64,000 nucleotides of DNA from a virus. Taxonomy: Duplodnaviria; Caudoviricetes. Location of the stretch: IMG/VR virus record IMGVR_UViG_3300024262_000013. The stretch is one strand, 5' to 3'. Position 1 is the stretch's first letter, and each line of letters starts with the position of its first letter. The notes below the pieces were generated by a model. That model was not told the origin of the DNA and searched no databases. It saw only the letters and a list, made by a program, of their open reading frames with translations. The position numbers were made by a program, and so were the translations under genes. Positions 9,242 to 50,224 of this stretch are shown here, one piece after another.

Positions 9242-12073
9242 ATGTCTCAAGTAATAATAAGATTAACCTTAAGTTCAAATGCAGTCGGACCATTCAGTAT
9301 ATATACGGGCTCTACCGCAACTACGCCGATTAAAACGGGTGTAACTAGAGACCAAATTATTGCGGGAGTTGTTTTAGACTTACCAGGTTCAGTTGCAGGT
9401 ATTCAATACCTTATACTTGTAGTTAATAAACAAGTTGGTTGTAATAATGAAACTGTCTCTAAACAGGTAGTTGTTTACGAATCGGCAGTCACACCGACTG
9501 TTACTCCAACTCTTACTGTTACTCCAACTCTTACTCCAACAAATACAGTTACTCCAACAAACACTCCGACTCAGGCTCAGGCCACTCCAACGCCAACACA
9601 GACAGTAACGATGACTATGACAGTCACTCCAACAGTTACTACTACTCCAACAAACACTATTGATGTTACACCTACTAATACTCCAACTCAAACTGTGACG
9701 GTAACACCGACAGATACTCCAGGTGCTAGCCCAACAAGTACACCAACAAATACAGTAACTCCTACAATTACTCCTACAGTAACATTAACGTCTACACCAA
9801 CTAACACACCAACAGGAACACCATCAACTACTCCAGGTGTTACTCCAACTAACACACCAACAAATACAGTCACTAATACAGTAACTCCTACAATTACTGC
9901 AACGGTTACTAGTTCACCAACAGGTACGCCATCCGTTACTCCAACTAACACACCAACAGGAACACCAGCAACTACTCCAGGGATAACACCAACAAATACA
10001 CCAACTAATACTGTAACTCCATCAATAACTGCTGAAGTTACACCTTCAGTAACTGCAACAGTTACACCAACAGGTACACCATCTGTTACCGTTACTAACA
10101 CACCAACAAATACAGTTACACCGACAGGTACACCATCTGTTACCGTAACTAATACTCCAACAAATACTGTAACTCCAACAGGTACACCATCAGTTACGGT
10201 AACTAATACGCCAACAAATACTGTAACTCCAACAGGTACACCATCAGTTACGGTAACTAATACGCCAACAGTTACTACTACACCGACAGATACTCCAGGT
10301 GCTAGCCCAACAGTGACACCAACAAATACTGCGACACCATCCGTTACGCCAACTAACACACCAACTAACACACCAACTAACACAGTTACTCCAACAGGAA
10401 CTGCTCAAGTAACTCCTACAATTACACCTACAAATACTGTAACACCAACTCAAACTGCTGTAGTAACTCAAACTCCGACTCCAACCAATACGGTGACACC
10501 ATCTGCCACTGCTGAGGTAACACCAACACCTTCGGTAACCACTACAATCACACCTACCGCTACTGCTGAAATTACCCCAACACCTTCGGTAACGACTACA
10601 GTTACTCCAACAGGAACCGCTCAAGTTACACCAACAATAACGCCGACAAATACAGTTACTCCAACTAATACACCAACAGGTACTGCGTCAGTAACTCCGA
10701 CTAATACTCCAACAAATACTGTAACTCCAACAGATACTCCATCTGTTACTCCAACAGGTACACCATCAGTTACGGTAACTAATACGCCAACAGTTACTAC
10801 TACACCGACAGATACTCCATCCGTTACACCAACAGGTACCGCGTCAGTAACTCCAACTAACACACCAACTAATACTGTAACACCAACTAATACTCCAACT
10901 AACACAGTTACTCCAACAGGAACTGCTCAAGTAACACCAACGATAACGCCAACAAATACCGTTACCCCAACAGGTACCGCTCAAGTAACACCAACTAATA
11001 CACCAACTAATACTGTAACTCCAACAGGAACTGCTGCGGTAACATCAACTCCAAAACCAACTATTACAATTACGCCAACTAATACTGTAACTCCAACAGT
11101 TACTCCAACTAATACTCCAACAGGAACTCCGGCGGTAACATCAACTCCAGAACCAACTAATACGGTCACTCCAACTAATACTCCAACAGGTACCGCTCAA
11201 GTAACACCAACTCCAGGACCAACTAATACGGTTACTCCGACTAATACTCCAACAGGTACGGCAGCGGTAACTCCGACAATTACGCCAACTAATACTGTAA
11301 CTCCAACAGTTACACCAACTAATACACCAACAGGAACTGCGGCGGTAACATCAACACCAGAACCAACTAATACGGTTACTCCGACTAATACTCCAACTAA
11401 TACTTCAACGCCGACAAACACTCCAACCAACACCCCAACGACTACACCAACAAATACACCAACAAATACACCAACTAATACTGTAACACCAACACCAACA
11501 CCAACTCAAGGAGTAATACCTAAAGCTTTATTATTTATTATTGAAAGTACTAATAACAACGCATTTGCGACTTATATGAATAACCAAGGGTCAGGATTCT
11601 TTGGGTTTGGTTTCTCAACACCACCATCTACAGGTTCAGATATTGTAACATTTATGGATTGGCCAGGGTTCTATAACGGTACCGCACCTACTGTAATTGA
11701 GGCGGTTATACCTCAAACGTCAGGAGGGGTTGATTCCTTTGGTAATGCAATTACTCAATATAATTTTGAAACGACTGAAATACCTATAGGAACAGTTTCA
11801 GGAGCAGCTTGGTACTATTGGTTAATACCACAATCTCAGTTAGGATTAACATCTAATAGACAATTAGATATTGGTTATAATATTAATTCTGACCCTGGTG
11901 TACTCACTGCTAGGTCTCTGAGTCCATCAATATATAATTTAGCGGGTAATTATAGTGGAGTTAATTGGGCGGCCGATACTTATAGAATGTATACTTCGTA
12001 TGGTAATACCGCATTTAACATCCAGAATAATAATACTGATGATATATATTTTAAAGGTTTGACTGTCGGATAA
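9242..12073 (+). CDS. mucin-like Thr/Pro-repeat virion protein
   Basis: 943 aa; about 670 aa of (xT)n Thr/Pro repeat between two small globular domains; TATTTATA upstream. Confidence 0.75.
9488..11508 (+). repeat. Thr/Pro coding repeat tract
   Basis: ACN/CCN-dominated imperfect tandem repeats. Confidence 0.9.
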
Positions 12074-12115
12074 AAAATAAGAATTAAAAAAACAAATACT
12101 AAGGTGGTTTTAAAC

Positions 12116-12123
12116 TACTTATA
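12116..12123 (+). promoter_or_regulatory. putative late promoter TACTTATA
   Basis: Variant motif upstream of 12161, at the 3' arm of an imperfect hairpin. Confidence 0.4.
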
Positions 12124-12160
12124 GTAATAATAATAATAATAAAAATAATAAAGGTAACAA

Positions 12161-13633: not shown

Positions 13634-13682
13634 GCCTAACTAATACTAAGAGGATAATAACCAATTAAAAAAATATAATAAC

Positions 13683-15716: not shown

Positions 15717-15729
15717 TTAAGATAGAAAA

Positions 15730-15761
15730 TTTCAATATAATTTGTATTGAAACTATTTATA
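15730..15761 (+). promoter_or_regulatory. putative late promoter with adjacent inverted repeat
   Basis: TTTCAATA-7 nt-TATTGAAA (15730-15752), then TATTTATA (15754-15761). Confidence 0.55.
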
Positions 15762-15778
15762 ATTAAACTATAATTAAC

Positions 15779-15800
15779 GGGAGAGATTAACGTCTCTCCC
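15779..15800 (+). promoter_or_regulatory. GC-rich 5' UTR hairpin
   Basis: GGGAGAGAT-TAAC-GTCTCTCCC; no U-tract follows it on either strand. Confidence 0.5.
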
Positions 15801-15824
15801 AAAGCCAAAAATAAAAAAAAACGA

Positions 15825-16910: not shown

Positions 16911-16937
16911 TATAAAATATTAGATTAAATAGAATTT

Positions 16938-16962
16938 AAAGAGGACTTAGTCCTCTTTTTTT
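16938..16962. terminator. bidirectional intrinsic terminator
   Basis: AAAGAGGAC-TTA-GTCCTCTTTTTTT between convergent genes. Confidence 0.8.
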
Positions 16963-17114
16963 ATTTCATCATATATCTGAAATAATCTAAGACTTTCATC
17001 AAGATTATTTTCTAATATCTCCAACTCTTTAGCGTCTGTAGTTTGAGAAGATGCTTTAACATATATGTCTTCGGCTTCATTAACTATTTGTATTATGGTT
17101 TTTAAAAGTTTCAT
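16947..17114 (-). CDS. small hypothetical protein (55 aa, not in ORF track)
   Basis: MKLLKTIIQIVNEAEDIYVKASSQTTDAKELEILENNLDESLRLFQIYDEIKKED*; TATTTATA 6 nt upstream; stop lies in the bidirectional terminator. Confidence 0.65.
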   Translation of the reverse strand: MKLLKTIIQIVNEAEDIYVKASSQTTDAKELEILENNLDESLRLFQIYDEIKKED

Positions 17115-17120
17115 CTTGTT

Positions 17121-17128
17121 TATAAATA
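17121..17128 (-). promoter_or_regulatory. putative late promoter TATTTATA
   Basis: 6 nt upstream of the minus-strand ATG at 17114. Confidence 0.5.
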
Positions 17129-17221
17129 CTCAAAAAAGGTGTTTAGTTCTTTACTATTGATAAATTTATATGATTTTTTAGTATACGAATATAAATATAA
17201 ACTTTTAAAGAAAATAATAAA

Positions 17222-18490
17222 ATGGCACGTAAATCGCAAACAATTTTTGTACAAATAGCCGCCTACAGGGACCCTGAATTAGTCAAAACTATCGAAAATA
17301 TGATAGAAAATGCTAAAAGACCACAAAACCTTGTGTTAGGTATTTGTCGTCAATATCACCCTGAAGACGGGTTTGATAATTTAGATAAATATAGGGAAGA
17401 TAAACGATTCCGAATTAGCGATGTCTTGTATACCGACGCTAAGGGGGTATGTTGGGCTAGGAACCAAGTACAACAATTATATGATGGAGAAATGTATACC
17501 CTACAGATTGATTCACATATGAGATTTGCCCCTGATTGGGATGTTGAGTTAATAAAGATGATTAAGGACCTCCAAAAGAAGGGAATACCAAAACCATTGT
17601 TGACAGGATACGTTTCGTCATATGACCCTGATAATGACCCTAAAGGACGAGTACAAGAACCATGGAGAATGGTTTTTGACCGGTTTATTCCTGAAGGAGC
17701 TGTATTCTTTTTACCTGAAACAATACCAGGACATAAAGAACTTGATATCCCTGTACCATCAAGATTTTACTCAGCACATATGTGTTTTACTTTAGGTGAG
17801 TTTGCTGAAGAGGTACAACATAATCCTGAGTATTATTTTCATGGAGAAGAAATATCAATAGCGGTAAGAGCATTTACGTGGGGTTATGATTTATTTCATC
17901 CACATAAGACACTAATTTGGCATGAATATACACGTAAAGGTAGAACTAAACAATGGGACGATGACTCAACATGGGGAGACAAAAATAGTCACTCACATTT
18001 AACAAATAGAAAGTTGTTCGGTATGGATGGCGAAAAACAAGAAGGGCATGAGGGTATTTATGGTTTTGGTACTGAAAGAACATTAAGGGATTATGAGGAG
18101 TATTCAGGGCTATTATTCTCTAAAAGAGCGATACAACAACATACGATAGATAAAAATTATCCACCAAATCCAGGAATAAGTGATTTTAAAAATGAGGAAG
18201 AGTGGATAGAAAGTTTTTCATCGATATTTAAACACTGTATAGATGTTGGTTTTGATAAGGTTCCTGAGAAAGATTATGACTATTGGGTTGTGGCCTTTCA
18301 TGGTGAAAACGATAAAACTTTATTTAGAAAAGATGCCGATAAAAATGAGATTGATAGAATGATGAAGGACCCCGAAAAATACTGTAAAGTATGGAGAGAA
18401 TTCCCAACTGCAGAAAAACCTAAATATTGGGTTGTTTGGCCGTATTCTAAATCTAAAGGTTGGTGTGAGAGGATAACAGGTAATTTATAA
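17222..18490 (+). CDS. GT60/Gnt1-like (Pfam GlcNAc-type) polypeptide GlcNAc transferase
   Basis: TIFVQIAAYRDPEL, KGVCWARN, TLQIDSHMRF (DxH), FHGEE, WHEY motifs characteristic of the GT60/GT27-related fold. Confidence 0.75.
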   Translation: MARKSQTIFVQIAAYRDPELVKTIENMIENAKRPQNLVLGICRQYHPEDGFDNLDKYREDKRFRISDVLYTDAKGVCWARNQVQQLYDGEMYTLQIDSHMRFAPDWDVELIKMIKDLQKKGIPKPLLTGYVSSYDPDNDPKGRVQEPWRMVFDRFIPEGAVFFLPETIPGHKELDIPVPSRFYSAHMCFTLGEFAEEVQHNPEYYFHGEEISIAVRAFTWGYDLFHPHKTLIWHEYTRKGRTKQWDDDSTWGDKNSHSHLTNRKLFGMDGEKQEGHEGIYGFGTERTLRDYEEYSGLLFSKRAIQQHTIDKNYPPNPGISDFKNEEEWIESFSSIFKHCIDVGFDKVPEKDYDYWVVAFHGENDKTLFRKDADKNEIDRMMKDPEKYCKVWREFPTAEKPKYWVVWPYSKSKGWCERITGNL

Positions 18491-20073
18491 TGGTAGAAAA
18501 AATGGCAAATATAGCATTTTATGGTTCACATAATGCAACTGTGGCGGTAGAAAAAGAAGGTAAAATAATAACAGTAATTGAGGTAGAAAGATTCTTATCG
18601 ATGAAAAATGCGGGTTACGCTCAGTATTTGATATCGTACACTAGACCTTACTTAATGAAATATATTTTAAAATATATTGAAGACGAATATGGTATTTCAG
18701 AATATGAAAACTGTTATTATTTAAATACAGATACGATAGAAAATGGGACTAAAGTTCATTATGAGAAACTTATATCCGCAAAAAATTACCATAATTCATT
18801 ACATCACTTAAGTCATGCTGCTTGTGCATTATATCAAACTGATTATCAAGAAGCTTTAATAATTTCATTTGATGGCGGTGGTAATGATGGATTCTTCAAT
18901 ATATATTTAGCTAAAGATAGAGATAATATTCAATTATTAGAGAAGTATAATTTAGATTTAGGTTTTCCTTATATGTCTTTTGGGGACTATTTAAGTGATA
19001 TTCGTAAAGAACCGGCACTTAATATAGGTAATTTAGTTTATTCAGGTAAAATAATGGGTTTATGTTCTTATGGTAACGTTAATAAAGAATGGTTACCTTA
19101 TTTTGAGAATTATTATCGAAGAAAACCTGATGGGTTAAACTACAAAGAGTATTTAAATGATTTAAGTAATGAAACAGGTTTAATCTTTGATATTAATAAT
19201 AGACTTACAGGTCAAACCGCTTGGGATTTAAGTGCTACTTCTCAAGAGGCATTTGAAAATGTTTTTATGGAAATGGCTCAACCATTTTTAGATAAGTACC
19301 CTAATATTCCATTGATAACTGTTGGTGGATGTGCGTTAAACATTTTATTAAATACCAAATTACAAAAAATGTTAGATAGACCTGTTTTTGTACCACCAAA
19401 TCCTAACGATTGTGGTATCGCATCCGGTATGATATTAAATCACATCAAACCTAAAACCGCGATTGATTTAACTTATGCCGGTACAGAAGTGTTAGATAAA
19501 CATACTTTAATGTCACACGTTGAAGAAAGAAGAGCTAAGGAGTTAGATATTAACATATTATCTAAAGACTTGTCAGAAGGTAAAATTGTTGGAGTCGTAA
19601 GAGGAACGTCAGAACATGGACCTAGAGCGTTAGGTAATAGAAGTATTATTTGTAACCCCGCTTATCCTGATATGAAAGACACATTAAACGCTAAAGTTAA
19701 AAATCGTGAGTGGTATAGACCTTTCGCTCCCGTATGTAGATTAGAGGACGTTGAAAAATACTTTAATTTTTCAGGTGAAAGTAAATGGATGAGTTTTTGT
19801 CCGACAGTTAGAGAAGAATGGAGAGAAAAATTAACATCAATAACACACGTTGATGGTACGGCTAGAGTTCAAACAGTTACTTATGAACAAAACCCTTGGT
19901 TATATAATTTAATTGGGGAGTTTGAAAAATTATCAGGTATTGGGGTTTTATTGAATACGTCATTCAACGTTAACGGTAAACCAATCTTGAGTAGATATGC
20001 AGATGCGTTAACTGTATACGATAAAACTAAACTAGATTGTTTAGTACTCTCAGATTATTATTTTAAAAAATGA
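18490..20073 (+). CDS. O-carbamoyltransferase (NodU/CmcH/TobZ family)
   Basis: HHLSHAA, YSGKIMGL, GGCALN, DCG, GPRALGNRSI, RPFAP, HVDGTARVQTV, LNTSFN motifs. Confidence 0.92.
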   Translation: MVEKMANIAFYGSHNATVAVEKEGKIITVIEVERFLSMKNAGYAQYLISYTRPYLMKYILKYIEDEYGISEYENCYYLNTDTIENGTKVHYEKLISAKNYHNSLHHLSHAACALYQTDYQEALIISFDGGGNDGFFNIYLAKDRDNIQLLEKYNLDLGFPYMSFGDYLSDIRKEPALNIGNLVYSGKIMGLCSYGNVNKEWLPYFENYYRRKPDGLNYKEYLNDLSNETGLIFDINNRLTGQTAWDLSATSQEAFENVFMEMAQPFLDKYPNIPLITVGGCALNILLNTKLQKMLDRPVFVPPNPNDCGIASGMILNHIKPKTAIDLTYAGTEVLDKHTLMSHVEERRAKELDINILSKDLSEGKIVGVVRGTSEHGPRALGNRSIICNPAYPDMKDTLNAKVKNREWYRPFAPVCRLEDVEKYFNFSGESKWMSFCPTVREEWREKLTSITHVDGTARVQTVTYEQNPWLYNLIGEFEKLSGIGVLLNTSFNVNGKPILSRYADALTVYDKTKLDCLVLSDYYFKK

Positions 20074-20957
20074 AAACAAAAATAGTTACATTCGTATATT
20101 TTGGCATAAATGACTTTCCTTTTTATGGTCACGAACCACAGGCTAGGTGGGATAGATATAAAAATTCACTTTTACAATTATCAGAAATGGGTTTACCTAT
20201 AGTTTGTTATTGTGGTAGTAACGTTTACCCTGAATTAAAAAAATTACTTGAAACCAATGAGGTAAAAAATATAGATTTAAGAATTAGGGAATTAGAAGAT
20301 TTTCGTCATAGTAAAAGTATGATTAAGATTAAAGAAAAAAACCCTGAAAAATTTAACTTTTACTTAGAAGTCGGATGGGCTAAAATTGCCTTAATGGAAG
20401 AGGAAATGGAAGATGATTTAGATTATTTATATTGGGTCGATATTGGTTTATCTCATGTTGGGTTATTTCCTTTTAGATTTAATAGTAATGGTGATAAGAT
20501 TACAGGTACGTCAACAAATAAATATAGATACACTTTCGATAAAATTTTTAATACAGATACTTTTAAAAAAATTAATAATTGGGTAGGTGATAAATTAATT
20601 AATTTAACGAACACTCAATTTTTTCATAATGCAACTACACTTAATAATACTTTAGATAAAAAACACAAATATAAGTCTTTAACCGTTGGTGGAATTATTG
20701 GGGGACATGTTAGTAAACTTCCTAACTTTTTTAAATCATTTGAAGAATACTCTCAAGTATGTTTAGAAAAAGAGTATTTACTAAATCATGAAGCGATGAT
20801 GTCTACAATCTCTTACGATAGACCTGAGGATTATGAAACATTTATATTTGGAACATGGTATCACGAGGATACACCAATGAAACATGTTACAACAGAATTT
20901 TTAAACAGTAAAAAGAGTTTTTATAAATTCTTTGAGGAAATAGAAAATAAAAAATGA
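20070..20957 (+). CDS. HtrL/YibB (WlaTC)-like glycosyltransferase
   Basis: TKIVTF, LYWVDIGLSH, VGGIIGG motifs; paralogous to the central domain of 21507..23891. Confidence 0.6.
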   Translation: MKTKIVTFVYFGINDFPFYGHEPQARWDRYKNSLLQLSEMGLPIVCYCGSNVYPELKKLLETNEVKNIDLRIRELEDFRHSKSMIKIKEKNPEKFNFYLEVGWAKIALMEEEMEDDLDYLYWVDIGLSHVGLFPFRFNSNGDKITGTSTNKYRYTFDKIFNTDTFKKINNWVGDKLINLTNTQFFHNATTLNNTLDKKHKYKSLTVGGIIGGHVSKLPNFFKSFEEYSQVCLEKEYLLNHEAMMSTISYDRPEDYETFIFGTWYHEDTPMKHVTTEFLNSKKSFYKFFEEIENKK

Positions 20958-20979
20958 AAGAATTAGAAAATAAAAAAAA

Positions 20980-21507
20980 ATGAAAGATTTAAATCAAATT
21001 TTCCCACAATTAAAAGACCTCGACACCAACTTAAATAATTTAGACGGTTGGGCACTATCTATAGAGTGTTTTTATTGGATATATAATAATATTGAAAAAG
21101 GTTCAAACATTATTGAGATAGGTAGTGGTCCTGGAACGATGGAGTTATCTAAACACTTCAACACATATAGTTTAGAACATCAAGAGAGATTTACAAAATT
21201 AGCACCTAAAGCTAATTATATACTAACAGAATTAGTAGATGGTTGGTACGAACCTGAAATAGTTTTTAATTCTTTACCTGAAGAATATTCTCTTATTATT
21301 GTTGATGGTCCACCTAACTTAGGTCAAGAAAAAACTAGAAATAATATTAAAAAGTATTGGGATAGGTTCGATACTTCAGTACCTATAATTATGGATGATA
21401 CACATAGACAAGATGAATATGAATTTGCTATTGAAACTGCAAAAGAATTAAATAAAGAGTGGACTCAATACGAAGGGTGGCAAAAAAACTTTATAGTGTT
21501 GACATAA
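20980..21507 (+). CDS. class I SAM-dependent methyltransferase
   Basis: IIEIGSGPGT motif I, LIIVDGPP, IIMDD. Confidence 0.7.
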   Translation: MKDLNQIFPQLKDLDTNLNNLDGWALSIECFYWIYNNIEKGSNIIEIGSGPGTMELSKHFNTYSLEHQERFTKLAPKANYILTELVDGWYEPEIVFNSLPEEYSLIIVDGPPNLGQEKTRNNIKKYWDRFDTSVPIIMDDTHRQDEYEFAIETAKELNKEWTQYEGWQKNFIVLT

Positions 21508-23891
21508 TGATAGAATTAAAAAAAACAGATTATTTTAATGATGCTCTACATCATTTGGGTAAAAAGGGTGAGAAATTATTCACACTTAATATCGGTGCGA
21601 TGGATGGGATTACTTTTGATGAGATGTCAGGGTATATAAAAATGTATAACTTTAAAGGGTTATATGTTGAACCTATTCCTGTTTATTATGACTTATTAAA
21701 AGAAAATTATAATGATGATGGTAATTTATTTGAAAATAGTGCAATTTCAGATTATGATGGAGAAATAACAATGTTAACCATTGATAAATCAGTTATTGAC
21801 CAAGGATTAGTTCATCCAGCATTTTTAGGGATGAGTGCGGTATACCCACCAAAGAATGGACTAGGTAGTGAAGGTGACCGTGAAGTGGTTGAAAAATACG
21901 GAAAAAAAATTACAGTACCATGTATTACCTTCAATCATCTATTAACTAAACATAATATAGATAGTTTTGATGTTGTTAAAATTGATGCCGAAGGACATGA
22001 TTATAATATTTTTAAACAAATTGATTTAAAAAAATATAGACCTAGAATTGTAAGAGCGGAATGGTCAAGTATTGAGGATTTTGAGAAAACATCTTTGATA
22101 GAACAATTAAATAGTGCGAATTACATATATGGTATCGAAGCAGATGATATTGTTGGTATTACTAAAGAGTTATATGATGAGATTTACAATAAAAAAGAAG
22201 AAATAATGGTAGATATGAAAAGTAATGGGGTTACTATAGTCACAGGTTTATGGGATATAAAAAGAGATGGACTTACAGAAGGATGGTCACGTAGTTATGA
22301 GCATTATTTAGAGAAGTTTTCACAATTATTAGAGACACCTAATAATATGATTATTTTTGGAGATAAAAAATTAGAAGAATTTGTCTTTAAAATTAGACAA
22401 CATGAGAATACTCAATTTATTGTTAGAGACCAAAGTTGGTTTAAAGGAGAATTTTATGAACCAATTCAAAAAATAAGAACTAATAAAGAATGGTATAATC
22501 AAACAGGATGGTTAGGGGAATCAACCCAAGCTAAATTAGATTTATATAATCCATTAGTGATGTCTAAACCATATCTTTTACATGACGCAAAAATTATGGA
22601 TAAATTTAAATCCACTCATTTATTTTGGTTAGATGCCGGTATCACCAATACTGTACATAACGGATATTTTGTTAAGGATTTATTTTTAGGTAAGATGGAA
22701 AAAACTGACAAAATGACGTTCATTGCCTTTCCATATGAGACTAATAGTGAAATTCATGGGTTCGAATATAATAAATTAAATGAATTGGCCGGTGGTAAAG
22801 TAAATAAAGTATGTAGAGGGGGGTTTTTTGGGGGACCAGTTGAAGATATATCTGATTTTAATACGGAATACTATAATTTAATGAAAAGTACTCTAAAAGA
22901 CGGATATATGGGTACAGAAGAGTCTCTATTTTCGATTCTTTTATATCGTTACCCCGAAAATTACCAATACTATCTTATAGAGGGAAATGGGTTGATTAAT
23001 AAATTTTTTGAAGATGTTAAAAATGATAATCATGTAGTATTAAGTGAGTCAAAAACTATATCATTAAAAAATGATTTAGATATTAATAATACTGCACTCT
23101 ATGTGATAACATTTAATAGTCCTAATCAGGTTAAAACATTAATAAAATCAATGAAAGAATATGATGAAGATTTTGTTACTAAACCAAAATGGATTTTATT
23201 AGATAATTCAACAGATTTAAGTACCACACCAGAATATGAGAGATTATGTGAAGAGTATGGGATTACTCATATTAAAAAAGATAATTTAGGTATCTGCGGT
23301 GGTAGACAATGGGTTGCTGAACACGCCGAAGAGAATGGGTACGACTACTATTTCTTTTTTGAAGACGATATGTTTTTTTATCCTAAGAAAGGTGAGGTCG
23401 GTAAAAACGGTTTTAATAGGTTTGTTAGTGGGTTATATAGGAAATCCTTACAAATATCTAAAAAAAATAATTTTGACTTTTTAAAATTATCATTTAGTGA
23501 ATTTTACGGAGATAATAGAGTTCAATGGGCTTGGTACAATGTACCTCAAGAATTTAGAGAAATTCATTGGCCCGAAAAACCAACATTACCTGTCCAAGGT
23601 TTAGACCCTAATGCTCCTAAAACTAAGATAACTAAAATAGATACATTTAACGGTGTACCGTATGCTCACGGGGAAATTTACTATTGTAATTGGCCTCAAG
23701 TGGTATCTAAATATGGTAATAGAAAAATGTTTTTAACTGAAAAATGGTCTAGACCATTTGAACAAACATGGATGTCATATATATTTCAAGAAACTGTAAA
23801 AGGTAATATTAATCCAGGAATTTTACTACTTACTCCAACTGAACATGACCGATTTGACCATTATGATGGTAAATTAAGAAAAGAGTCATAA
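21507..23891 (+). CDS. FkbM methyltransferase - HtrL-type GT - GT-A-like three-domain fusion
   Basis: Start reassigned to ATG 21507 (TAATG coupling). IGAMDG, VEP, KIDAEGHD (FkbM); VTGLWD, FWLDAG, GGFFGG (HtrL); ILLDNS, GICGGR, FFEDD (GT-A). Confidence 0.7.
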   Translation: MIELKKTDYFNDALHHLGKKGEKLFTLNIGAMDGITFDEMSGYIKMYNFKGLYVEPIPVYYDLLKENYNDDGNLFENSAISDYDGEITMLTIDKSVIDQGLVHPAFLGMSAVYPPKNGLGSEGDREVVEKYGKKITVPCITFNHLLTKHNIDSFDVVKIDAEGHDYNIFKQIDLKKYRPRIVRAEWSSIEDFEKTSLIEQLNSANYIYGIEADDIVGITKELYDEIYNKKEEIMVDMKSNGVTIVTGLWDIKRDGLTEGWSRSYEHYLEKFSQLLETPNNMIIFGDKKLEEFVFKIRQHENTQFIVRDQSWFKGEFYEPIQKIRTNKEWYNQTGWLGESTQAKLDLYNPLVMSKPYLLHDAKIMDKFKSTHLFWLDAGITNTVHNGYFVKDLFLGKMEKTDKMTFIAFPYETNSEIHGFEYNKLNELAGGKVNKVCRGGFFGGPVEDISDFNTEYYNLMKSTLKDGYMGTEESLFSILLYRYPENYQYYLIEGNGLINKFFEDVKNDNHVVLSESKTISLKNDLDINNTALYVITFNSPNQVKTLIKSMKEYDEDFVTKPKWILLDNSTDLSTTPEYERLCEEYGITHIKKDNLGICGGRQWVAEHAEENGYDYYFFFEDDMFFYPKKGEVGKNGFNRFVSGLYRKSLQISKKNNFDFLKLSFSEFYGDNRVQWAWYNVPQEFREIHWPEKPTLPVQGLDPNAPKTKITKIDTFNGVPYAHGEIYYCNWPQVVSKYGNRKMFLTEKWSRPFEQTWMSYIFQETVKGNINPGILLLTPTEHDRFDHYDGKLRKES

Positions 23892-23904
23892 TAAAATGTT
23901 ACAA

Positions 23905-23927
23905 AATCGCTTATGCGATTATTTATA
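23905..23927 (+). promoter_or_regulatory. putative late promoter with adjacent inverted repeat
   Basis: AATCGC-TTAT-GCGATT running into TATTTATA (23920-23927). Confidence 0.55.
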
Positions 23928-23945
23928 TAGAAAGTATTTAAGTAT

Positions 23946-26900
23946 ATGGTTGGATATAAGGTAGGTCAAAAAGTTTTATTGCTTGACGGGTCTTTTTTGA
24001 ATATTGAAAATGTTCAAGAAGGTATGTTATTGCAAACTATTGCTTTGCCCAATGATGATATAACTAAAGATGGTTTACAATGGTCCACTAAAGAAATAAA
24101 GGAGTTACGATATGTTTCTTCTGAAGTTAACAAAGTTTCCAAACAAAATAATGAATTTATTAGTATTAATGAATTATCATTAAATGATAAGGAAATATTG
24201 GTATATGATACCGTAGATTCGAAGTTCGAGTTTAAAAATGTTAAAGACTTATCCTTAGGTGATGATTATAAGTTAGTAAGAATTGATGGAGATAGTATAC
24301 TATTGGAAAATATTTATAGTTATGAAAAATCTAATAACGAAGAAGATTTAATATCTATAAGTTTAAATGGTCCTTTTCATTATCTTTTAGATGGGTACAT
24401 AGTACATAATGATGTTCCAAACATTTGTGTTCGTAATTGTTCTAATAATGCGATAGCATGTATTGGTAATACCTCGACACCACCTTTAGTGGCGGGTAGT
24501 ACTGGGTTTATAGATAATTTTGGTAATTGTTGGTTAGCGATTAGTGACTGCAATAGTTGTACCCCTACCGTATCATTTACAGGTACAATACAGTCGGTAT
24601 GGAATGGTAGCTCATGTCTTGATTGTCCTAGTAGTGATGTAACACCAACCCCAACACCAACCCCAACAATTACACCTACAATAAATAATGGTCAATTTCA
24701 GTCTTGTTGTCCTCCTTTTGGCTCTACTAATCTTTCATATACAAATGGGTCTATAAATGATATATTTATTTATAATGGTGGTTGTTATAAACTCATAAAT
24801 TCTTTGGGTTTCGGTGGTCCAATGGCTACATTGTCCACAGAATTTGCCGATTGTGAAAAGTGTGTTTTGGAAAATCCTTGTTCTGAACCAACTCCGACTC
24901 CAACCAATACTCCTACTCAAACTCCGACTCCAACCAATACTCCTACTCAAACACCTACAAATACCCCGACTATAACTCCTACGGAAACAGTAAGTTATCG
25001 TGAATTACGAATTAGAGATTGTTGTACTGATACTTTAGAACTATCTATTATGGTTCCTGACGCTTTAATTAATAATTTTATTACCACTGGTGCTGCATTC
25101 ATTTTTAATGATTGTTGTTATTATGCGTTTGCTACAGGTGGAAGTGGTAGTGATGGTGTTAGAAACACATCCGATTCAACTGATTGTAATAAATGTCAGA
25201 CGACGCATCCATGTGCCGAATGGTTAATAGATGCTATTGATTGTTGTGATGAATCGATAACGTTATCAGAAAAATTCATAGTGGCTTGTTCCGACCCACT
25301 AATAAAACCTAGTGTATTATACGGCGATGTTTTTACTTATAATGGTACGTGTTGGGATATTGTAAGTGAAACCCAAACAACAGGAGCAACAATAACGTTA
25401 GATATTAGTGACTTTTATAATGACTGTCCTTCTTGTGTGACTTGTCCAACAAACACACCTACCAATACTCCAACAAACACACCGAAACCAACAGTAACTC
25501 CATCTGTAACTACTACTCCATCTGTAACTACAACTCCAACAGATACTCCAGCTGTAACTAAAACTCCAGCTGTAACTACAACACCAACAGGTACTCCAGC
25601 TGTAACTAAAACGCCATCAGTAACAGTAACTCCAGCTGTAACTACAACACCAACAGGTACTCCAGCTGTAACTAAAACGCCATCAGTAACAGTAACTCCA
25701 GCTGTAACTACAACTCCAACAGATACTCCATCTGTAACAGTAACTCCATCTGTAACTGTAACTCCATCTGTAACTACAACTCCAACAGATACTCCATCAG
25801 TAACAGTAACTCCAGCTGTAACTACAACTCCAACAGATACTCCATCAGTAACAGGTACTCCAGCTGTAACTACAACGCCATCTGTAACTGTAACACCAGA
25901 TGTAACTACAACTCCAACCAATACACCTACTCAAACGCCAACAGGAACTGCTCAAATAACTTTGACTCCAACTAACACCCCTACTCAAACGCCAACTAAT
26001 ACACCAACAGGTACTCCTTTATCTACTCCTGGTGTAACACCTACTAATACTCCGACAGGAACTGCTCAAATAACTTTGACTCCAACCAATACACCTACTC
26101 AAACGCCTACTAATACTCCAACTAATACTCCAACTGAAACGCCGACTAATACACCTACCGAAACAGCTAACGTAACTGCTACACCTACTGAAACACCTAC
26201 AAATACCCCAACTAATACTCCGACCAATACAGTAACTCCAACAGGTACTCCTCAAGTAACTCCAACGAATACCGTTACCCCAACAGGTACGGCAGCGGTA
26301 ACTCCAACTAATACTCCGACCAATACAGTAACTCCAACAGGTACTCCATCAGTTACACCTACAAATACCCCAACAAATACTGTAACTCCAACAGGAACTG
26401 CACAAGTTACTCCGACAATTACACCAACAAATACGGTTACTCCAACTAATACGGTTACTCAAACTGTTACGCCAACTAATACGCCAACTCAGACTGTTAC
26501 GGTGACTCCAACGGATACTCCAGGTGCGAGTCCAACATCGACACCTACTAATACGGTAACCCCTACAGTTACACCAACAAATACACCAACAACTACTGTA
26601 ACTCCTTCAATAACTGCTGAAGTTACACCAACAGGTACTCCTTCAGTAACAGTAACGCCAGATGTAACTGTAACTCCATCAGTAACAGTAACTCCATCAG
26701 TTACACCTACAAATACACCAACTGAAACTGCTAACGTAACTCAAACTCCTACTGAAACTCCAACTAATACTCCAACAGGTACTCCTGGTGTAACACAAAC
26801 TCCTACTGAAACACCAACTGAAACACCAACCAATACGCCTACTAATACACCAACAGGTACTCCTGGTGTAACACAAACTAATACACCTACCGAAACTGCT

Positions 26901-29660
26901 AACGTAACTCAAACTCCTACTCAAACGCCTACTGAAACACCAACTAATACTCCAACGGGAACTGCTCAAGTAACTCAAACACCTACTGAAACTCCGACAA
27001 ATACCCCGACAGGAACTGCTCAAGTAACTTTGACCCCTACCGCTACTTTGACATCTACACCAACAAATACCCCAACTAACACTGTTACACCAACAGGAAC
27101 ACCATCAGTTACACAAACTAATACACCAACTCTTACTGTTACACCAACAGGTACCGCTCAAGTTACTCCAACGAATACCCCAACAAACACAATTACTCCC
27201 TCAATTACAAGTAGTGTTACACCAACTATTACTCCAACTAATACAGTAACACCAACGATAACACCAACAGTTAGTGTCACTGTCACGCCAACAGGTACAC
27301 CGGGAGCAAGTCCAACATCCACTCCAACTAACACTCCAACTAATACTGTAACACCAACTATAACCCCTACCAATACTGTAACACCAACTAATACTCCAAC
27401 ATTAACCCCAACATCTTCGACTGCTGGGTGTTCGGCAATTATAACCACAGGTACTACTGTGACCTCTACACCAACACCAACACCAACACCAACACCAACA
27501 CCTCAAGGGGGTACATCTGTCGGTGGTGAGGTGACTTTCGTAATTGACCAAGGATATTTTGACTGTGGTGAAGTAGCAAGATTAACTAATTGTGTAAACC
27601 TTAGTAATGTAATACAAGAATTTTACGTTACGTCCCCAATAACTTATAGTGGAGGTACCGTAACATCGGGTACAACATTTAATGGTACTATAGATGGTAT
27701 AGAATATTGCTTAACGTTTGTTGAGGAAATTGATGGTTCTTCAACACATATTTTAACATCTGTTAATAGTGTAGATGCCGATTGTGCCGATTGTATTACA
27801 CCTAGCCCAACACCAACAGTTGAATATTTTAGTCTATTTGAAAGATGTAATGGTGTACCATGTACAGAAACTGGTATTAACTTTGGTGAACAAACCGACC
27901 CTAATACGATTATCTCTAATTGGGTTAGATTCTCATCATTCGCAGGTGTTAATTATCCTGGAACAACTATTAAATCAGGATTACAAACAAATGGTAGTAT
28001 AATTACTAATGACCCTTCAAAATATTTCTATACAGGTACAACTAACCTTGATTACTTAGGTGTTTTATCTTCTGTAATGACAGAAGGTGAAAACGTTGGA
28101 CCATCAGGTTTACAACAAAATAATACTGATAGTGGTAAATTCTACTATAATAACTTTATTAATAAATTTGTAGTTTGGTTTAATGTCAAGGGACAAACAA
28201 ATGGTTGGAAATGGGCAACATGGGACCCAACAGAAAATACCGGTTTACAATACGGTAACCCGACAGCCACAAGATTTTTAACTACAAGTACTAATTGGTC
28301 GACAGCATCTTTAACTATTTCAAATCTAACCGTTAGTGGGGCATCTAATACAGTTGTTACTGCAATTAATAAGATTACTGATGCTGGTGGTGTTACGGAT
28401 ATGATTCAGTGTTCGCAGAATAGTGGGTTATATAATGGTTTTTACTCTACTTGTGGATATGAGGAATATACACATGAGGTTACTATGGGTAGTACCGCGA
28501 CTGATAATGATACTATAGGTCTTGTCTTAGCAGCATTTAAAGATAATGATGGTATATATGGTCCATCAGGTCAAACACAAACGTTACAATTAACTATTAA
28601 CGGGGATAATAATAACTCTAGAATAATTTTCAATCAAAATAATAATACTCAATCGTTTACTGATGGTGCCGGTAATTTCAATACTTTAGTATGGCAAGGT
28701 ACTTCACCATATGGTTCGGGTAATTATAACGGTAAAGGTCAAATTAGATTTAAAGTTGTAAAAACAGGTACAACAATAAGTGTTTATAATACAAGTAAAA
28801 TGGGTACAGGTAATGGTCAATTACCTATAGGTTCAACTAACCCATATACACTATTAGTTTCTATAGATTTAACTGATGATGCTACATGGACAAACAAACC
28901 TTCATATGCAGTTGGAACTGAGTTATTAAGGTTTACGGGTGGTACTCAATTTGGGTACTTAACCGCATCACAAAGACAAACACAATTCTACGATATTGTA
29001 TTCTCAGGTTCACAACAGACAAATGATGATTCATTATATGCTGTAGGTCTTACAACCCCTGGAGCTAATAACGTATCAACCTTTAACGAAGTGGGTGGTT
29101 GTTGGGATTATGTAGGTGAAGTAACGGGATATACGGGTCCAACATATTCATTAACTATAGACAATGTATACGTTAATTGTACTCAATGTCCTACAGATGA
29201 TACACCTTTACCATCTAGTACACCATTAAGTAGTAGTGTACCAACATCAACACCGACACCTACTCCAACACAAACACCTATAATACTACCGACCCCAACA
29301 CCAACTCCGACGCCACAACCATCGGGTCCTCATCAAATATGGGTATCAGGACCAGTAGGTCCTAGTAGTTGTAGTACTTTCTGTTCAATAAACTATAATG
29401 TAAGTTTAGAATTAACTTGTGATGGGATAGACGCAACCCAACCAACACATATATTTGGTATTCAAAATGGTATTGAAGGTGGTCACTACGCTTATTATTG
29501 GATTGGTGCATCTAATACTGGTACCGGAAATACAGGAGTATTTAGAATTGCTCAATGTAGTACTGAAAATGACCCATCAAGTCCAAATTATGGGTTATTC
29601 GGTAAATGTGATGGTGATTTATTTGAATGTGGTGCAGGGTCACAATGTGTACCAATTTAA
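23946..29660 (+). CDS. giant virion protein: N-terminal Hint domain, Cys-rich modules, mucin-like Thr/Pro stalk, possible lectin-like C-terminal region
   Basis: 1904 aa; [20 protein letters not shown]...[10 protein letters not shown] Hint; DCC/DCxxC repeats; about 690 aa of (xT)n. Confidence 0.7.
25444..27500 (+). repeat. Thr/Pro coding repeat tract
   Basis: Sub-blocks of [16 protein letters not shown] and TPTNTVTP units. Confidence 0.9.
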
Positions 29661-29700
29661 ATGATATGAATAAAAAAAATAAAATTGAAAGAGAGATTAA

Positions 29701-29708
29701 TACTTATA
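29701..29708 (+). promoter_or_regulatory. putative late promoter TACTTATA
   Basis: Intergenic, upstream of 29768. Confidence 0.4.
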
Positions 29709-29767
29709 GTAACATAACATATTCACTTAATAACGTGAGTGATTATAATAATAGGATAGACAAATAA

Positions 29768-31063
29768 ATGACTACAGTATCAGTAAATACGGCAACAGGA
29801 ACATCACCCTTTCAAATATGGGTGGCAAATGGTTGTGGAGTTAATGCTCAACAAACTTATATTAGTCAAATTATTAGTGCGGATATCCCATATACATTTA
29901 ACTTACCATCTCAGTATGAAAATTCTCCATTCTGTGTTAAAGTAATTGATTCGGATAATTGCGAAGTTTGTGATTGTTTTGGTTTTGGTCCGACGCCAAC
30001 ACCTTCAGTAACCGCAACGGTAACTCCTACGGTAACTGTTACTCCAACACTGACTCCGACACCTACCGTTTCTGCACCATGTCCAACTCCGACATATTAC
30101 TATGGTTCATTTACAGGTAACGGATTTACCTCATCCGCAACATATACCTTATCTCCAACATTACACAATGGAAGAGCTCAGTGGGTCTCACCAAGTAACG
30201 GAACAATACAGTGGGTTGGGAATAGATGGGAAGTGTCATTTTATAATTTAGCTGGTGTTTTATATTATAACCTAAATATGACTATAGATTCACCTGATAC
30301 TATAAATTGGGTATTACAGGGATGTGCCGCGGATTTCCAATGTGCGGTTTCATTCACAATTGGAGGATGTGGTTTACCGACCCCAACACCTACTACTACT
30401 CCAACAATGACTCCAACCCCTACCGTCACATCAAGTCCGGGAGCTAGTCAAACACCAACACCTACGAATACGCCAACCAATACGCCAACCAACACTCCGA
30501 CTCAAACACCAACTAACACACCTACCAATACTCCAACAAATACTCCAACAAATACTCCAACACCAACTAATACCCCAACGACTACTCCAACGACTACCCC
30601 AACGACTACTCCAACGACTACTCCAACTAATACGACTACTAACACACCGACTCCAACAGTTACTCCTTCATCGACAAGAGGCGTGATTTATAACTTCTAT
30701 TATACGATGGCATTAGGTAGTAGTGGTATGAGTAATGGTAAAATAATGTTTAGTCCGAATGGTTCAATCAGTAGCTCAACGTTATCGATAACGGGGGCGA
30801 CAGATATTTTAGTTGCGAGAGAAGAAAATGGTTCTATCGATAGAACTGATGAACTAACAGGTGTAACTACAGGTAGTGAATTTTTAATTACATCCATAGA
30901 TAATCCTTTTGAAAATGTTGTATTAACAGTTGATGAGCCCGACCCACTATTCAGCGTAGCCCAAAGTTTTGTTAGGTTTCCTATATTAACTTTAGAAAGT
31001 TACACAAATGAGCCACCTTTTAGTGCTGGTGAATCATTAGAATTAACAATAACCTTACAATGA
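29768..31063 (+). CDS. Thr/Pro-repeat virion protein
   Basis: 431 aa; N-terminal domain resembles that of 9242 (GTSPFQIW vs VGPFSIY); two PT tracts. Confidence 0.65.
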   Translation: MTTVSVNTATGTSPFQIWVANGCGVNAQQTYISQIISADIPYTFNLPSQYENSPFCVKVIDSDNCEVCDCFGFGPTPTPSVTATVTPTVTVTPTLTPTPTVSAPCPTPTYYYGSFTGNGFTSSATYTLSPTLHNGRAQWVSPSNGTIQWVGNRWEVSFYNLAGVLYYNLNMTIDSPDTINWVLQGCAADFQCAVSFTIGGCGLPTPTPTTTPTMTPTPTVTSSPGASQTPTPTNTPTNTPTNTPTQTPTNTPTNTPTNTPTNTPTPTNTPTTTPTTTPTTTPTTTPTNTTTNTPTPTVTPSSTRGVIYNFYYTMALGSSGMSNGKIMFSPNGSISSSTLSITGATDILVAREENGSIDRTDELTGVTTGSEFLITSIDNPFENVVLTVDEPDPLFSVAQSFVRFPILTLESYTNEPPFSAGESLELTITLQ

Positions 31064-50223: not shown

Positions 50224-50224
50224 T

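Follow-up and report, generated by a model that had tools for sequence, protein, structure and literature searches.

A phage GT60-like glycosyltransferase cassette associated with Thr/Pro-stalk genes: a candidate cytoplasmic mucin-type O-glycosylation system

A 64,000-nt stretch of DNA from an uncultured jumbo phage (the window) carries a run of glycan-modifying genes between genes for large proteins with stalks rich in Thr and Pro (PT proteins). What do these enzymes act on, and are the neighbouring stalks their acceptors? The features of the locus are collected in Table 1, and genes and their products are referred to by first nucleotide. All ORFs named in the original prediction for this locus were present where it had placed them, on the + strand.

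Table 1. Features of the window relevant to the proposed glycosylation system.
Feature	Coordinates (nt)	Strand	Basis
Giant 2081-aa protein, SprB-type repeats and two short Thr/Pro tracts	2885..9130	+	PF13573 SprB, 48.6 bits
943-aa Thr/Pro-stalk protein, candidate acceptor	9242..12073	+	Tract anatomy, c6 C-terminal domain
Three tandem paralogous genes	12161-13633, 13683-15716, 15825-16910	+	Cluster c8, phrog_17490
Terminator-like hairpin and T-run	16940..16963	+	Read directly from sequence
GT60-like polypeptide HexNAc-transferase, proposed initiator	17222..18490	+	Pfam match, fold, motif
NodU/CmcH-family O-carbamoyltransferase, proposed glycan cap	18490..20073	+	PF16861 and PF02543
GT-A fold glycosyltransferase, HtrL-like at a distance, proposed extender	20070..20957	+	Fold, BLASTP
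Small 175-aa protein, possible class I SAM methyltransferase	20980..21507	+	Language-model neighbours only
FkbM-HtrL-GT-A three-domain fusion	21459..23891	+	PF05050, PF09612, sub-threshold GT-A/TAGT-like
1904-aa Thr/Pro-stalk giant, candidate acceptor	23946..29660	+	Tract anatomy, weak similarity
431-aa protein with Thr/Pro tracts, candidate acceptor	29768..31063	+	Tract anatomy
Two prolyl-hydroxylase-type 2OG-Fe(II) oxygenases	37445-38056, 38200-38835	+	PF13640/OGFOD2-like
dTDP-glucose-4,6-dehydratase-like SDR	45909..46814	+	Family scan
SDR-family NDP-sugar epimerase/dehydratase	50201..51091	+	Family scan

The five genes from 17222 to 21459 had been described as a coupled operon, and this was borne out by start/stop overlaps or short gaps throughout. 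The start of 18490 shares one base with the stop of 17222, 20070 overlaps the preceding gene by 4 nt, 20980 follows a gap of 22 nt, and 21459 starts with GTG and overlaps the gene before it by 49 nt. The hairpin and T-run divide the upstream structural genes from the operon, which forms its own transcription unit and has a promoter-like motif unlike that of the PT genes. No membrane segments were found in the cassette enzymes or the PT proteins, and family scans of the window ORFs yielded no priming transferase, flippase or polymerase; a lipid-linked route was therefore not apparent.

By family membership and fold, 17222 is a true PF11397/GT60 enzyme. Indeed, the HMM search matched it to PF11397 ('GlcNAc') at 216.5 bits, against a Pfam cut-off of 21, confirming the label it had been given. 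The protein has a GT-A catalytic domain (aa 1-~310) and a beta-rich C-terminal domain (aa ~325-422), and its DxH motif (D97/H99) is invariant across 29 homologues. The best Swiss-Prot fold match of its AF2 model (pLDDT 93.5) was the Dictyostelium Skp1-hydroxyproline GlcNAc-transferase (E 7e-25, 27% identity, TM 0.63), and polypeptide GalNAc-transferases made up the rest of the top Swiss-Prot matches and all of the top 30 from the PDB. The relationship to the ppGalNAc-Ts claimed for GT60 was thus recovered in the fold (nearest Gnt1, then the ppGalNAc-Ts), sequence identity to GT27 being only 10-16%.

Gnt1 of Dictyostelium and Toxoplasma, the top fold match, is likewise a soluble cytoplasmic GT-A enzyme of PF11397 with a DxH motif, and it starts a multi-step protein glycan, as is proposed for 17222. 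In contrast to 17222, it has no extra beta-rich C-terminal domain; it modifies a single hydroxyproline on one protein and requires a prolyl hydroxylase, whereas the phage presents hundreds of Thr/Pro repeats as candidate acceptors and no hydroxylase is conserved with its cassette. Mucin-type O-glycosylation is initiated by the Golgi GT60 enzymes of Trypanosoma cruzi and Dictyostelium, which are UDP-GlcNAc:polypeptide alpha-GlcNAc-transferases, and by the animal GT27 ppGalNAc-transferases, which are Thr/Ser polypeptide transferases acting on Thr/Pro-rich, mucin-like repeats. The two-domain layout of 17222, catalytic plus C-terminal beta, is reminiscent of GT27; unlike these eukaryotic, membrane-anchored enzymes, it is soluble, phage-encoded and predicted to work in the bacterial cytoplasm. 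We propose that 17222 may be a soluble starter of mucin-type glycosylation on the Thr/Pro tracts.

The carbamoyltransferase label of 18490 held on both of its profiles, as did the FkbM-HtrL-GT fusion claimed for 21459, in which FkbM spans aa 45-223, HtrL_YibB aa 258-509, and a sub-threshold GT-A/TAGT-like third domain was matched over aa ~578-641. Two further labels stood in part. The product of 20070, called an HtrL-type glycosyltransferase, has a confident GT-A fold (pLDDT 89) and resembles the HtrL domain of 21459 (BLASTP E 5e-5), but a Pfam search gave no match. The methyltransferase label of 20980 proved weaker than claimed: profile searches found no family, and language-model neighbours bearing Methyltransf_24 tentatively suggest that it is possibly a class I SAM methyltransferase. 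In a set of 81 phage-type loci, made up of the window and 80 loci from IMG/VR, a 20070-type gene was a core partner in 69, and the HtrL+GT-A core accompanied GT60 in 76, as it did in many bacterial loci.

The Thr/Pro stalks reported in 9242 and 23946, and the shorter tracts in 2885 and 29768, were all found. The two long stalks (about 685 and 704 residues; 43% Thr, 19% Pro) occupy aa 80-764 of 9242 (nt 9479-11533, about 287 Thr), between an 80-aa N-terminal domain and a C-terminal globular domain, and aa 494-1197 of 23946 (nt 25425-27536, about 295 Thr), between Cys-rich N-terminal modules and globular C-terminal domains. The tracts of 29768 lie at aa 70-113 and aa 195-307 (nt 30350-30688), and those of 2885 at nt 4256-4447 and 8024-8113. 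Tract composition is 41-48% Thr and 18-23% Pro, and the tract DNA is made of degenerate tandem units of 18 to 54 nt. The three c8 paralogues contain no Thr/Pro tracts and have modules resembling 'head decoration' and 'tail fiber' proteins of phages.

The placement of the cassette inside a tail/baseplate module found little support. The ORFs of 1-35 kb gave zero matches to named tail or baseplate families, and such resemblance as there was, to 'virion structural/tail fiber' or 'head decoration' proteins, was weak. One C-terminal domain of 23946 has a weak likeness to virion structural/tail fibre proteins of Pseudomonas jumbo phages, and the C-terminal domain of 9242 is 43% identical (E 5e-28) to a C-terminal domain family (c6) that stands upstream of the glycosyltransferase in 38 related loci. 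Judged from sequence, 2885 is probably an adhesin-like or surface structural protein, and a position of the PT proteins on the virion is weakly supported.

Are GT60 and Thr/Pro genes associated beyond this phage? In the synteny comparison, a Thr/Pro tract was present in the gene directly upstream of GT60 in 40 of the 59 related phage loci with at least 3 kb of upstream sequence, and a Thr/Pro ORF lay in the flanks of 74 of the 81 phage-type loci. The order PT proteins, GT60, variable island, HtrL+GT-A was conserved. The island occurred as 23 distinct gene sets drawn from GT25, GT10, GT11, PLOD-GT-like, GT2 and FkbM genes, a pattern of oligosaccharide tailoring. This synteny is partly inherited, because the loci are relatives; six fully flanked phage loci had no tract within 10 kb, and 70 kb or more separate the cassette from the PT clusters in G003, a complete relative. 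Co-occurrence gave the same association: seven GT60-positive phage records held 12-97 TPTxTPT sites (reversed-pattern control, 0-1), and the GT60-negative jumbo phages Atu_ph07, SCTP-2 and RaK2, three controls only, held 0.

The Xanthomonas jumbo phage XacN1 carries a homologous cassette (ORF334-ORF330) with gene order kept (identities: GT60 47%, carbamoyltransferase 46%, HtrL+GT-A 40%; plus an HtrL-like gene) in different genomic surroundings, with replication genes (DNA polymerase, RNase H) on one side and a baseplate-wedge/giant-protein block on the other. It has many Thr/Pro-tract genes, of which the nearest long one, ORF350, is about 12 kb from the cassette. At least two Schiff-stained glycoproteins were reported in XacN1 virions, their bands not assigned to proteins, and the authors drew no link from ORF334 to Thr/Pro tracts (PMC5852040).

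Among bacteria, Thr/Pro tracts were found at 16 of 64 GT60 loci and at none of 40 control regions (Fisher p = 1.8e-4), about three quarters of the GT60 loci having no tract within 10 kb. Across four separate lineages of bacteria (genomes of 3.8-6.8 Mb) the sole or main TPTxTPT cluster was at most 2.6 kb from GT60. All 5 sites of the 4.5 Mb Jiulongibacter genome fall in one gene, 188 bp from a GT60 cassette whose GT60-carbamoyltransferase-FkbM/HtrL trio is 53-72% identical to the phage counterparts, and a second PF11397 gene lies inside the operon of that PT gene. In Verrucomicrobia, Gemmatimonadaceae and Congregibacter the sites are likewise beside GT60, and on Bacteroidota chromosomes a near-identical cassette adjoins an exported-looking PT protein.

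Since GT60 and Thr/Pro stalks co-occur in phages and in bacteria, the likeliest reading is that the phage adds sugars to its own fibres. The probability that the cassette is a cytoplasmic mucin-type O-glycosylation system for the phage's own Thr/Pro proteins is put at about 0.6. Acceptor, donor and order of steps are as we infer them: 17222 would put the first sugar, probably a HexNAc donated by a UDP-sugar, on Thr (or Ser) side chains in the tracts of 9242, 23946 and 29768 and the short tracts of 2885; the 20070 enzyme would lengthen the glycan together with both transferase domains of 21459; and carbamoyl and methyl caps would be added by 18490 and the FkbM domain, perhaps joined by 20980, all in the host cytoplasm ahead of assembly or lysis. 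The NDP-sugar enzymes predicted further on were confirmed, and 45909 and 50201 may each supply a donor, a putative link to the cassette. The modified proteins would be virion appendages, to which the sugar coat could confer extension or protease resistance. The central prediction, that the phage glycosylates its own mucin-like fibres, thus stood in part: it passed the computational tests named with it, but these gave no support to the tail/baseplate role of the Thr/Pro proteins, to GlcNAc as the sugar or to the suggested physical role (stiffness, reach, protease resistance or camouflage). Against this reading, the operon is a transcription unit separate from the PT genes, the extender families GT25, GT10/11 and HtrL are typical of LPS/LOS synthesis, and unglycosylated Thr/Pro linkers also exist.

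The best placed of the alternatives, although itself unlikely, is a variant in which 37445 and 38200 would hydroxylate tract Pro and GT60 would then glycosylate the hydroxyproline; the Skp1 pathway and plant Hyp-rich glycoproteins are precedents. The top fold match of 17222 acts on Skp1 hydroxyproline, the two oxygenase genes lie 14 kb downstream of the cassette, and two PF13640 genes also occur in the relative G002. However, the oxygenases are outside the operon and are not conserved with the cassette: G003 (100% complete), G004 and XacN1 have GT60 and PT tracts without PF13640, and no homologues were found at 73 bacterial GT60 loci or the XacN1 locus. Tract Thr also exceeds Pro more than twofold. 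The two enzymes may be optional accessories for such a route.

It is also improbable that the target during infection is the host's LPS, its capsule or one of its Thr/Pro surface proteins, remodelled by the cassette for example for superinfection block or receptor masking, the PT adjacency being incidental. GT25, GT10, GT11 and HtrL-type enzymes would suit this role, as would an operon with its own promoter-like motif, and since the Bacteroidota cassette adjoins an exported-looking PT protein, the phage copy could target a host protein; sugar clusters of jumbo phages have been interpreted as surface-polysaccharide modifiers (PMC7824862). Yet the initiator's family is known for polypeptide acceptors only, and the fold agrees; in the family scans of the window ORFs, lipid-carrier priming enzymes, flippases and membrane proteins were all absent. 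Next to the cassette the phage genome itself offers candidate acceptor residues by the thousand, PT load follows GT60 across phage genomes, and XacN1 virions stain for glycoprotein.

Lower still stands coincidence, in which the tracts would be plain, unglycosylated flexible linkers, and the cassette would produce a small glycoconjugate or a free oligosaccharide or would modify another protein. Linkers of Thr and Pro are widespread, 75% of the bacterial GT60 loci have no tract within 10 kb, cassette and PT clusters are apart in G003, and cyanophage carbamoyltransferase clusters have been interpreted as secondary-metabolite systems (PMC7824862). The enrichment over matched controls, the TPTxTPT clusters next to GT60 in four bacterial lineages and the contrast between GT60-negative and GT60-positive jumbo phages argue against it. 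A glycosylated and carbamoylated DNA base protecting against restriction is very improbable: the similarity of the last 21459 domain and its relatives to a TET-associated glycosyltransferase and a T4-type HMC glucosyltransferase PHROG is sub-threshold (TAGT scores of 18 and 22.4 bits, cut-off 27.5), and although the XacN1 cassette is near DNA polymerase and RNase H and a dCMP deaminase gene is present in the window, no hydroxymethylase or TET/JBP genes were found among the window ORFs scanned, the GT60 fold is that of polypeptide transferases rather than DNA glycosyltransferases, and the PT proteins beside bacterial chromosomal copies would go unexplained.

Glycosylation of the phage's own stalks would have several parallels. 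Gram-positive serine-rich-repeat adhesins are modified by GtfA/GtfB and variable extenders, and the Bacillus anthracis exosporium carries BclA, a collagen-like GPT-repeat glycoprotein. These resemble the proposed system in that long Ser/Thr fibre repeats are O-glycosylated in the cytoplasm, HexNAc first, with strain-variable extension and caps; they differ in being bacterial, in repeat chemistry and in that the GT4 enzymes GtfA/B are unrelated to GT60. Bacterial glycanases, such as those of Cellulomonas, have 'PT-box' linkers of Thr and Pro whose O-glycosylation shields them against proteolysis, but these span 20-40 residues in secreted enzymes and are modified at export, whereas the phage stalks span about 700 residues in unexported proteins. 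Mycobacteriophages also encode glycosyltransferases beside structural genes and decorate virion proteins, with glycans, in the account of Freeman et al. 2023 given in PMC12619734, at the C-termini of capsid/tail-tube subunits; here the candidate acceptors are mucin-like giant stalks, and the proposed initiator belongs to GT60, a family of eukaryote type.

The arrangement of the window is best read, at a probability of roughly 0.6, as a cytoplasmic mucin-type O-glycosylation system directed at the phage's own Thr/Pro proteins (PT proteins). The GT60 enzyme encoded by 17222 would begin the glycan on these proteins in the cytoplasm, GT-A and HtrL-type enzymes would lengthen it, and carbamoyl and methyl groups would cap it. 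The DNA is AT-rich (GC ~32%), with nearly all genes between 1 and ~35 kb on the + strand.

Features of the window bearing on the candidate glycosylation system and neighboring genes; genes are named by their start positions.
Feature	Position	Strand	Assignment and evidence
2885 product	2885-9130		2081 aa; shorter Thr/Pro tract
9242 product	9242		stalk aa 80-764
Three tandem paralogues	12161-16910		490, 677 and 361 aa
Terminator-like hairpin	16940-16963		precedes operon
50-codon ORF	16964-17113	-	alone between hairpin and operon, neighbors on + strand (by eye)
Glycosylation operon	17222-23891	+	five coupled ORFs
17222 product	17222		GT60-like; PF11397 'GlcNAc' 216.5 bits (cut-off 21), E 9e-64; phrog_24687
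18490 product	18490		NodU/CmcH O-carbamoyltransferase family; PF02543 71.7 bits (N-terminal) and PF16861 211.6 bits (C-terminal), both above cut-off
21459 product	21459		FkbM methyltransferase, HtrL/YibB domain and further GT-A-like stretch
23946 product	23946		stalk aa 494-1197
29768 product	29768		shorter Thr/Pro tract
Oxygenase genes	37445-38835		two genes
Sigma-70-family factor	53798-54607		regions 2 and 4 both match

Profile and fold agreed on the GT60 label that the original prediction had given to the 17222 product. The PF11397 match covered profile positions 95-349 together with an N-terminal stretch. The AF2 model (pLDDT 93.5) matched best Gnt1, the Dictyostelium transferase that adds GlcNAc to Skp1 hydroxyproline (E 7e-25), followed in Swiss-Prot models and the PDB by polypeptide GalNAc-transferases only; these GT27 initiators of mucin-type glycans formed the top 30 PDB fold matches (E about 1e-10 to 1e-9). 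A sequence search of the transferase against PDB chains gave no match. Across 29 phage and bacterial homologues, D97 and H99 of the GT60 DxH motif were invariant and S98 was at least 90% conserved. The catalytic domain is followed by a beta-rich C-terminal domain of ~100 residues (aa ~325-422, pLDDT ~90) that is present in the phage, Bacteroidota, Gemmatimonadota and Verrucomicrobia homologues; the Burkholderiaceae homologues lack it, their matches running from residue 1 to about 314-346. By analogy with the lectin domain of GT27 enzymes, this extra domain might bind the repeat acceptor. The predicted complex of the enzyme with a 46-residue stalk fragment scored 0.00, with a partner pLDDT of 26, an outcome that speaks neither for nor against binding.

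The Gnt1 fold match and the two oxygenase genes of the window would also suit a variant in which proline is hydroxylated before the GT60 step. This route is possible for this phage, but PF13640 oxygenases were absent from the relatives G003 and G004, from the Xanthomonas jumbo phage XacN1 and from the bacterial loci searched. Co-occurrence of a P4H with the transferase, as in a Skp1-type pathway, was not found, the P4H-type genes of the window lying 14 kb from the cassette. Because the oxygenases are not conserved, hydroxyproline as the general acceptor was downgraded and is considered rather unlikely.

The remaining operon products were consistent with tailoring of a glycan, to differing degrees. 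Both family domains of the 18490 product exceeded their cut-offs, as expected of the predicted carbamoyltransferase, and it matched phrog_1601 at E 1e-120; it scored 163 bits against the NodU NCBIfam equivalog (cut-off 1000), which rules out a NodU orthologue and leaves a member of the family. The predicted FkbM-HtrL-GT fusion of 21459 was recovered, with FkbM at aa 43-223 (PF05050, 68.2 vs 22.7 bits; TIGR01444, 47.2 vs 37.7 bits) and HtrL/YibB (PF09612, 60.1 bits, cut-off 24.1) above threshold and the further GT-A-like stretch below it; the product also fell under the YibB equivalog cut-off (71.9 vs 264.9). The 20070 product, labeled an HtrL-type glycosyltransferase, kept the second half of its label: its model, folded with 34 homologues, was a confident GT-A (pLDDT 89) whose closest solved structures are retaining sugar-to-sugar transferases (XXYLT1, blood-group GTA/GTB and LARGE1), but the family scan returned no match, PF09612 included, and the link to HtrL was a weak BLASTP similarity to the HtrL domain of 21459 (E 5e-5). 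The small 20980 product, predicted to be a methyltransferase, resembled one only weakly. None of the five operon enzymes contained hydrophobic segments of membrane-spanning length, and at the DNA level the operon matched none of the isolated phages searched.

The presumptive acceptors were located where predicted, as long Thr/Pro stalks in the 9242 and 23946 products and shorter tracts in those of 2885 and 29768. Thr makes up 41-48% of the tracts and Pro 18-23%, and each long stalk contains ~290 Thr. At the DNA level the tracts consist of degenerate tandem units, most with a period that is a multiple of 18 nt, commonly 54 nt. The stalk genes were accepted as real because the globular domains flanking the stalks are conserved in relatives. 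No signal peptide-like or membrane segments were found in the PT proteins.

Indications that the PT proteins may be virion parts are thin. One domain of the 23946 product resembled 'virion structural/tail fiber' proteins of Pseudomonas jumbo phages (30% identity, E 5e-5), and the three tandem paralogues contain modules resembling 'head decoration' and 'tail fiber' proteins. In the window no named tail/baseplate family was recognized. When the four PT proteins were scanned outside their repeats with Pfam and PHROG, SprB adhesin repeats in the 2885 product, a further slight pointer to a virion role, were all that emerged. Neither the first ORF nor the C-terminal domain of the 9242 product had a phage match by tblastn; the PT proteins were for this reason not assigned to tail or baseplate. 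The modules of the paralogues are cyanophage-like, and the closest relatives (L005, L006, L046 and L067) carry an expanded set of 3-5 members of this family. By eye, the 2885 product contains two DxSxS-type stretches with no family match, the form of which suggests vWA/MIDAS-like domains.

Each long stalk gene has the motif TATTTATA exactly 26 nt before its ATG (at 9216 and 23920), as does 54644; in front of the operon, at 17190, stands TATAAATA instead, at a distance of 32 nt. With 17 occurrences on the + strand and 8 on the - strand, TATTTATA was close to a rough chance estimate of ~11 per strand for AT-rich DNA. With the operon motif also differing, a shared late promoter was discarded as evidence of co-regulation.

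The co-occurrence and synteny of GT60 and PT-repeat genes anticipated by the original prediction were borne out in related phages. Searches of IMG/VR yielded 313 relatives (matches), of which 80 loci were examined. With XacN1 included, 74 of 81 loci had a Thr/Pro ORF in the flanks, and in 40 of the 59 loci with enough upstream sequence the immediate upstream neighbor of GT60 carried a Thr/Pro tract. The conserved order was Thr/Pro-stalk proteins, GT60, a variable island and an HtrL+GT-A protein, and the upstream stalk proteins included a family with the same C-terminal domain as the 9242 product. Repeat load, counted at codon level as TPTxTPT sites, was 12-97 with GT60 and 0 without, the latter for only three phages picked from those named in the XacN1 paper; the reversed pattern gave 0-1 sites. 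In the complete 200-kb genome G003, 70 kb or more separate the cassette and the Thr/Pro clusters, yet the repeats are present.

TPTxTPT sites in phage genomes with and without GT60 (G001-G004, relatives of this phage); absence denotes no PF11397 match.
Genome	GT60	TPTxTPT sites
G001	present	97
G002	present	71
G003	present	32
G004	present	12
XacN1	present	51
Xoo-sp13	present	51
RAS14	present	22
Atu_ph07	absent	0
SCTP-2	absent	0
RaK2	absent	0

The island comprised 23 distinct gene sets drawn from GT25, GT10 and GT11 fucosyltransferase-like, PLOD-GT-like, GT2, GT4-like, FkbM and other methyltransferase genes, which is the way glycan-tailoring loci vary. The carbamoyltransferase gene was present at six loci. 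In three MAG contigs (L084, L086 and L088), remnants of this gene of 14-57 residues (57-77% identical) lie between the GT60 and HtrL genes; judging from these remnants, the capping gene was evidently lost by deletion in those lineages.

Enzymes of this kind could instead remodel host glycans or host proteins, and the LPS-type extending enzymes would fit such a role. That reading is unlikely: it leaves unexplained why the initiator is of polypeptide type, why no membrane or lipid-carrier components turned up among the scanned ORFs of the window, and why Thr/Pro load tracks GT60.

The cassette of XacN1 (ORF334-ORF330) is homologous and has the same gene order; this phage has many Thr/Pro-tract genes, one of which, ORF350, adjoins a 'structural protein' gene. 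XacN1 virions are reported to contain at least two Schiff-stained glycoprotein bands, not assigned to proteins, and the authors suggested the phage's own transferases as their makers (PMC5852040). Four core glycosyltransferase groups, with no role given, were described in the freshwater 'moraphage' jumbo phages with predicted Flavobacteriia hosts (PMC12619734), a lineage that may be this phage group. In the literature searched, neither phage GT60/PF11397 enzymes nor a link between them and Thr/Pro repeats was described, and nothing relevant was found on carbamoyltransferases with hypermodification or on jumbo-phage Thr/Pro repeats. Virion glycosylation is known in mycobacteriophages and giant viruses; to our knowledge, protein glycosylation of phage particles is documented in few phages. 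Mucin-type initiation by GT60/GT27 enzymes is regarded as a eukaryotic trait.

A bacterial scan, with one genome per species, returned 73 GT60 loci. The closest matches (66-74% identity) were low-GC MAG contigs mostly labeled Saprospiraceae or Bacteroidia, which are probably phage contigs and give a hint of a Bacteroidota host. The distant chromosomal homologues adjoin Thr/Pro-repeat proteins in several unrelated settings.

Thr/Pro-repeat neighbors of distant bacterial GT60 genes.
Taxon	Neighbor of GT60 gene
Jiulongibacter, Arcticibacterium, a verrucomicrobium	Tat-signal-like small PT protein
Gemmatimonadaceae (L097, L103)	protein with PqqD-like domain, TM and Thr/Pro tail, directly upstream
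Luminiphilus, Congregibacter	PT protein with C-terminal anchor
Rhodocyclaceae, Azonexus, Magnetococcales	giant adhesin with retention module
Burkholderiaceae	VgrG with (PT)n tail

Genome-wide, all five TPTxTPT sites of Jiulongibacter (4.5 Mb) fall in a gene 188 bp from the GT60 gene, and the sole multi-site cluster of a Gemmatimonadaceae genome (3.8 Mb) is in the gene directly upstream of GT60. In the verrucomicrobial (6.8 Mb) and Congregibacter (4.2 Mb) genomes, the largest of 2-3 clusters lies 2.2-2.5 kb from it. At three loci (L150, L155 and L147) the giant retention-module adhesins bear (TPEPTTTPAPTA)n and are directly downstream of the GT60 gene; at L116-L119, T6SS VgrG spikes with C-terminal (PT)n tails lie 1-4 kb from it.

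The Jiulongibacter island contains the phage trio of GT60, carbamoyltransferase (72% identity) and FkbM-HtrL-GT (63%), with UDP-sugar enzymes and a second PF11397 gene in the operon of the PT gene. Its surroundings do not look phage-derived: GMC oxidoreductase genes border one end, HNH-nuclease and McrBC-like genes the opposite end. In this island, on contig5 of J. sediminis (L100, 4946-15148), UDP-glucose dehydrogenase, SDR epimerase and short PF11397 genes accompany the genome's only TPTxTPT-repeat gene, after which comes the divergent trio, 53-72% identical to that of the phage; this likeness suggests that Bacteroidota and their phages have recently exchanged DNA, and the island provides a cultured test system.

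With loci taken irrespective of outcome, an S/T/P-rich tract of at least 80 residues was present at 16 of 64 distant loci (1,020 kb) and in none of 40 control regions (800 kb; Fisher p = 1.8e-4), the controls coming from eight of the same genomes, with related genomes not fully independent and cases spanning several phyla. These control statistics, together with fold and context, make a coincidental association of GT60 with Thr/Pro genes quite improbable. They also led to rejection of DNA modification as the main reading, a very remote prospect whose TAGT-like matches (PF20691, TET-associated glycosyltransferase) in the GT-A-like stretch of 21459 and relatives scored 18.0 and 22.4 bits, below the cut-off of 27.5.

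Beyond glycosylation of this phage's own PT proteins, a wider reading is offered tentatively, as somewhat doubtful: that jumbo phages of aquatic Bacteroidota and Xanthomonadaceae, and many bacteria, perform true mucin-type O-glycosylation. A prokaryotic GT60/GT27 branch would coat Thr/Pro stalks hundreds of residues long to give bottle-brush virion fibers, the island, with its many gene sets among the 80 relatives, would be a hypervariable 'glycan serotype' locus, the viral counterpart of O-antigen diversity, and the branch would possibly be the evolutionary source of eukaryotic mucin-type initiation. If so, widespread uncultured jumbo phages and several bacterial phyla would produce cytoplasmic mucin-like glycoproteins with a eukaryote-type initiator, and variable glycan coats on virions would affect host recognition, protease resistance, particle stickiness and antibody recognition. 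This would also give a predicted function to the GT60 branch of prokaryotes, to the HtrL+GT-A protein that partners it and to many orphan Thr/Pro 'linker' proteins. The glycosylation idea is directly testable, since XacN1, Xoo-sp13, RAS14 and J. sediminis are in culture.

Elsewhere in the window, the phage-encoded sigma-70-family factor has near it genes for Mre11-like (40560) and SbcC-like (43534) proteins, a PLP-dependent enzyme (39694), a PNKP-type phosphatase (49206) and a dCMP deaminase (46816).
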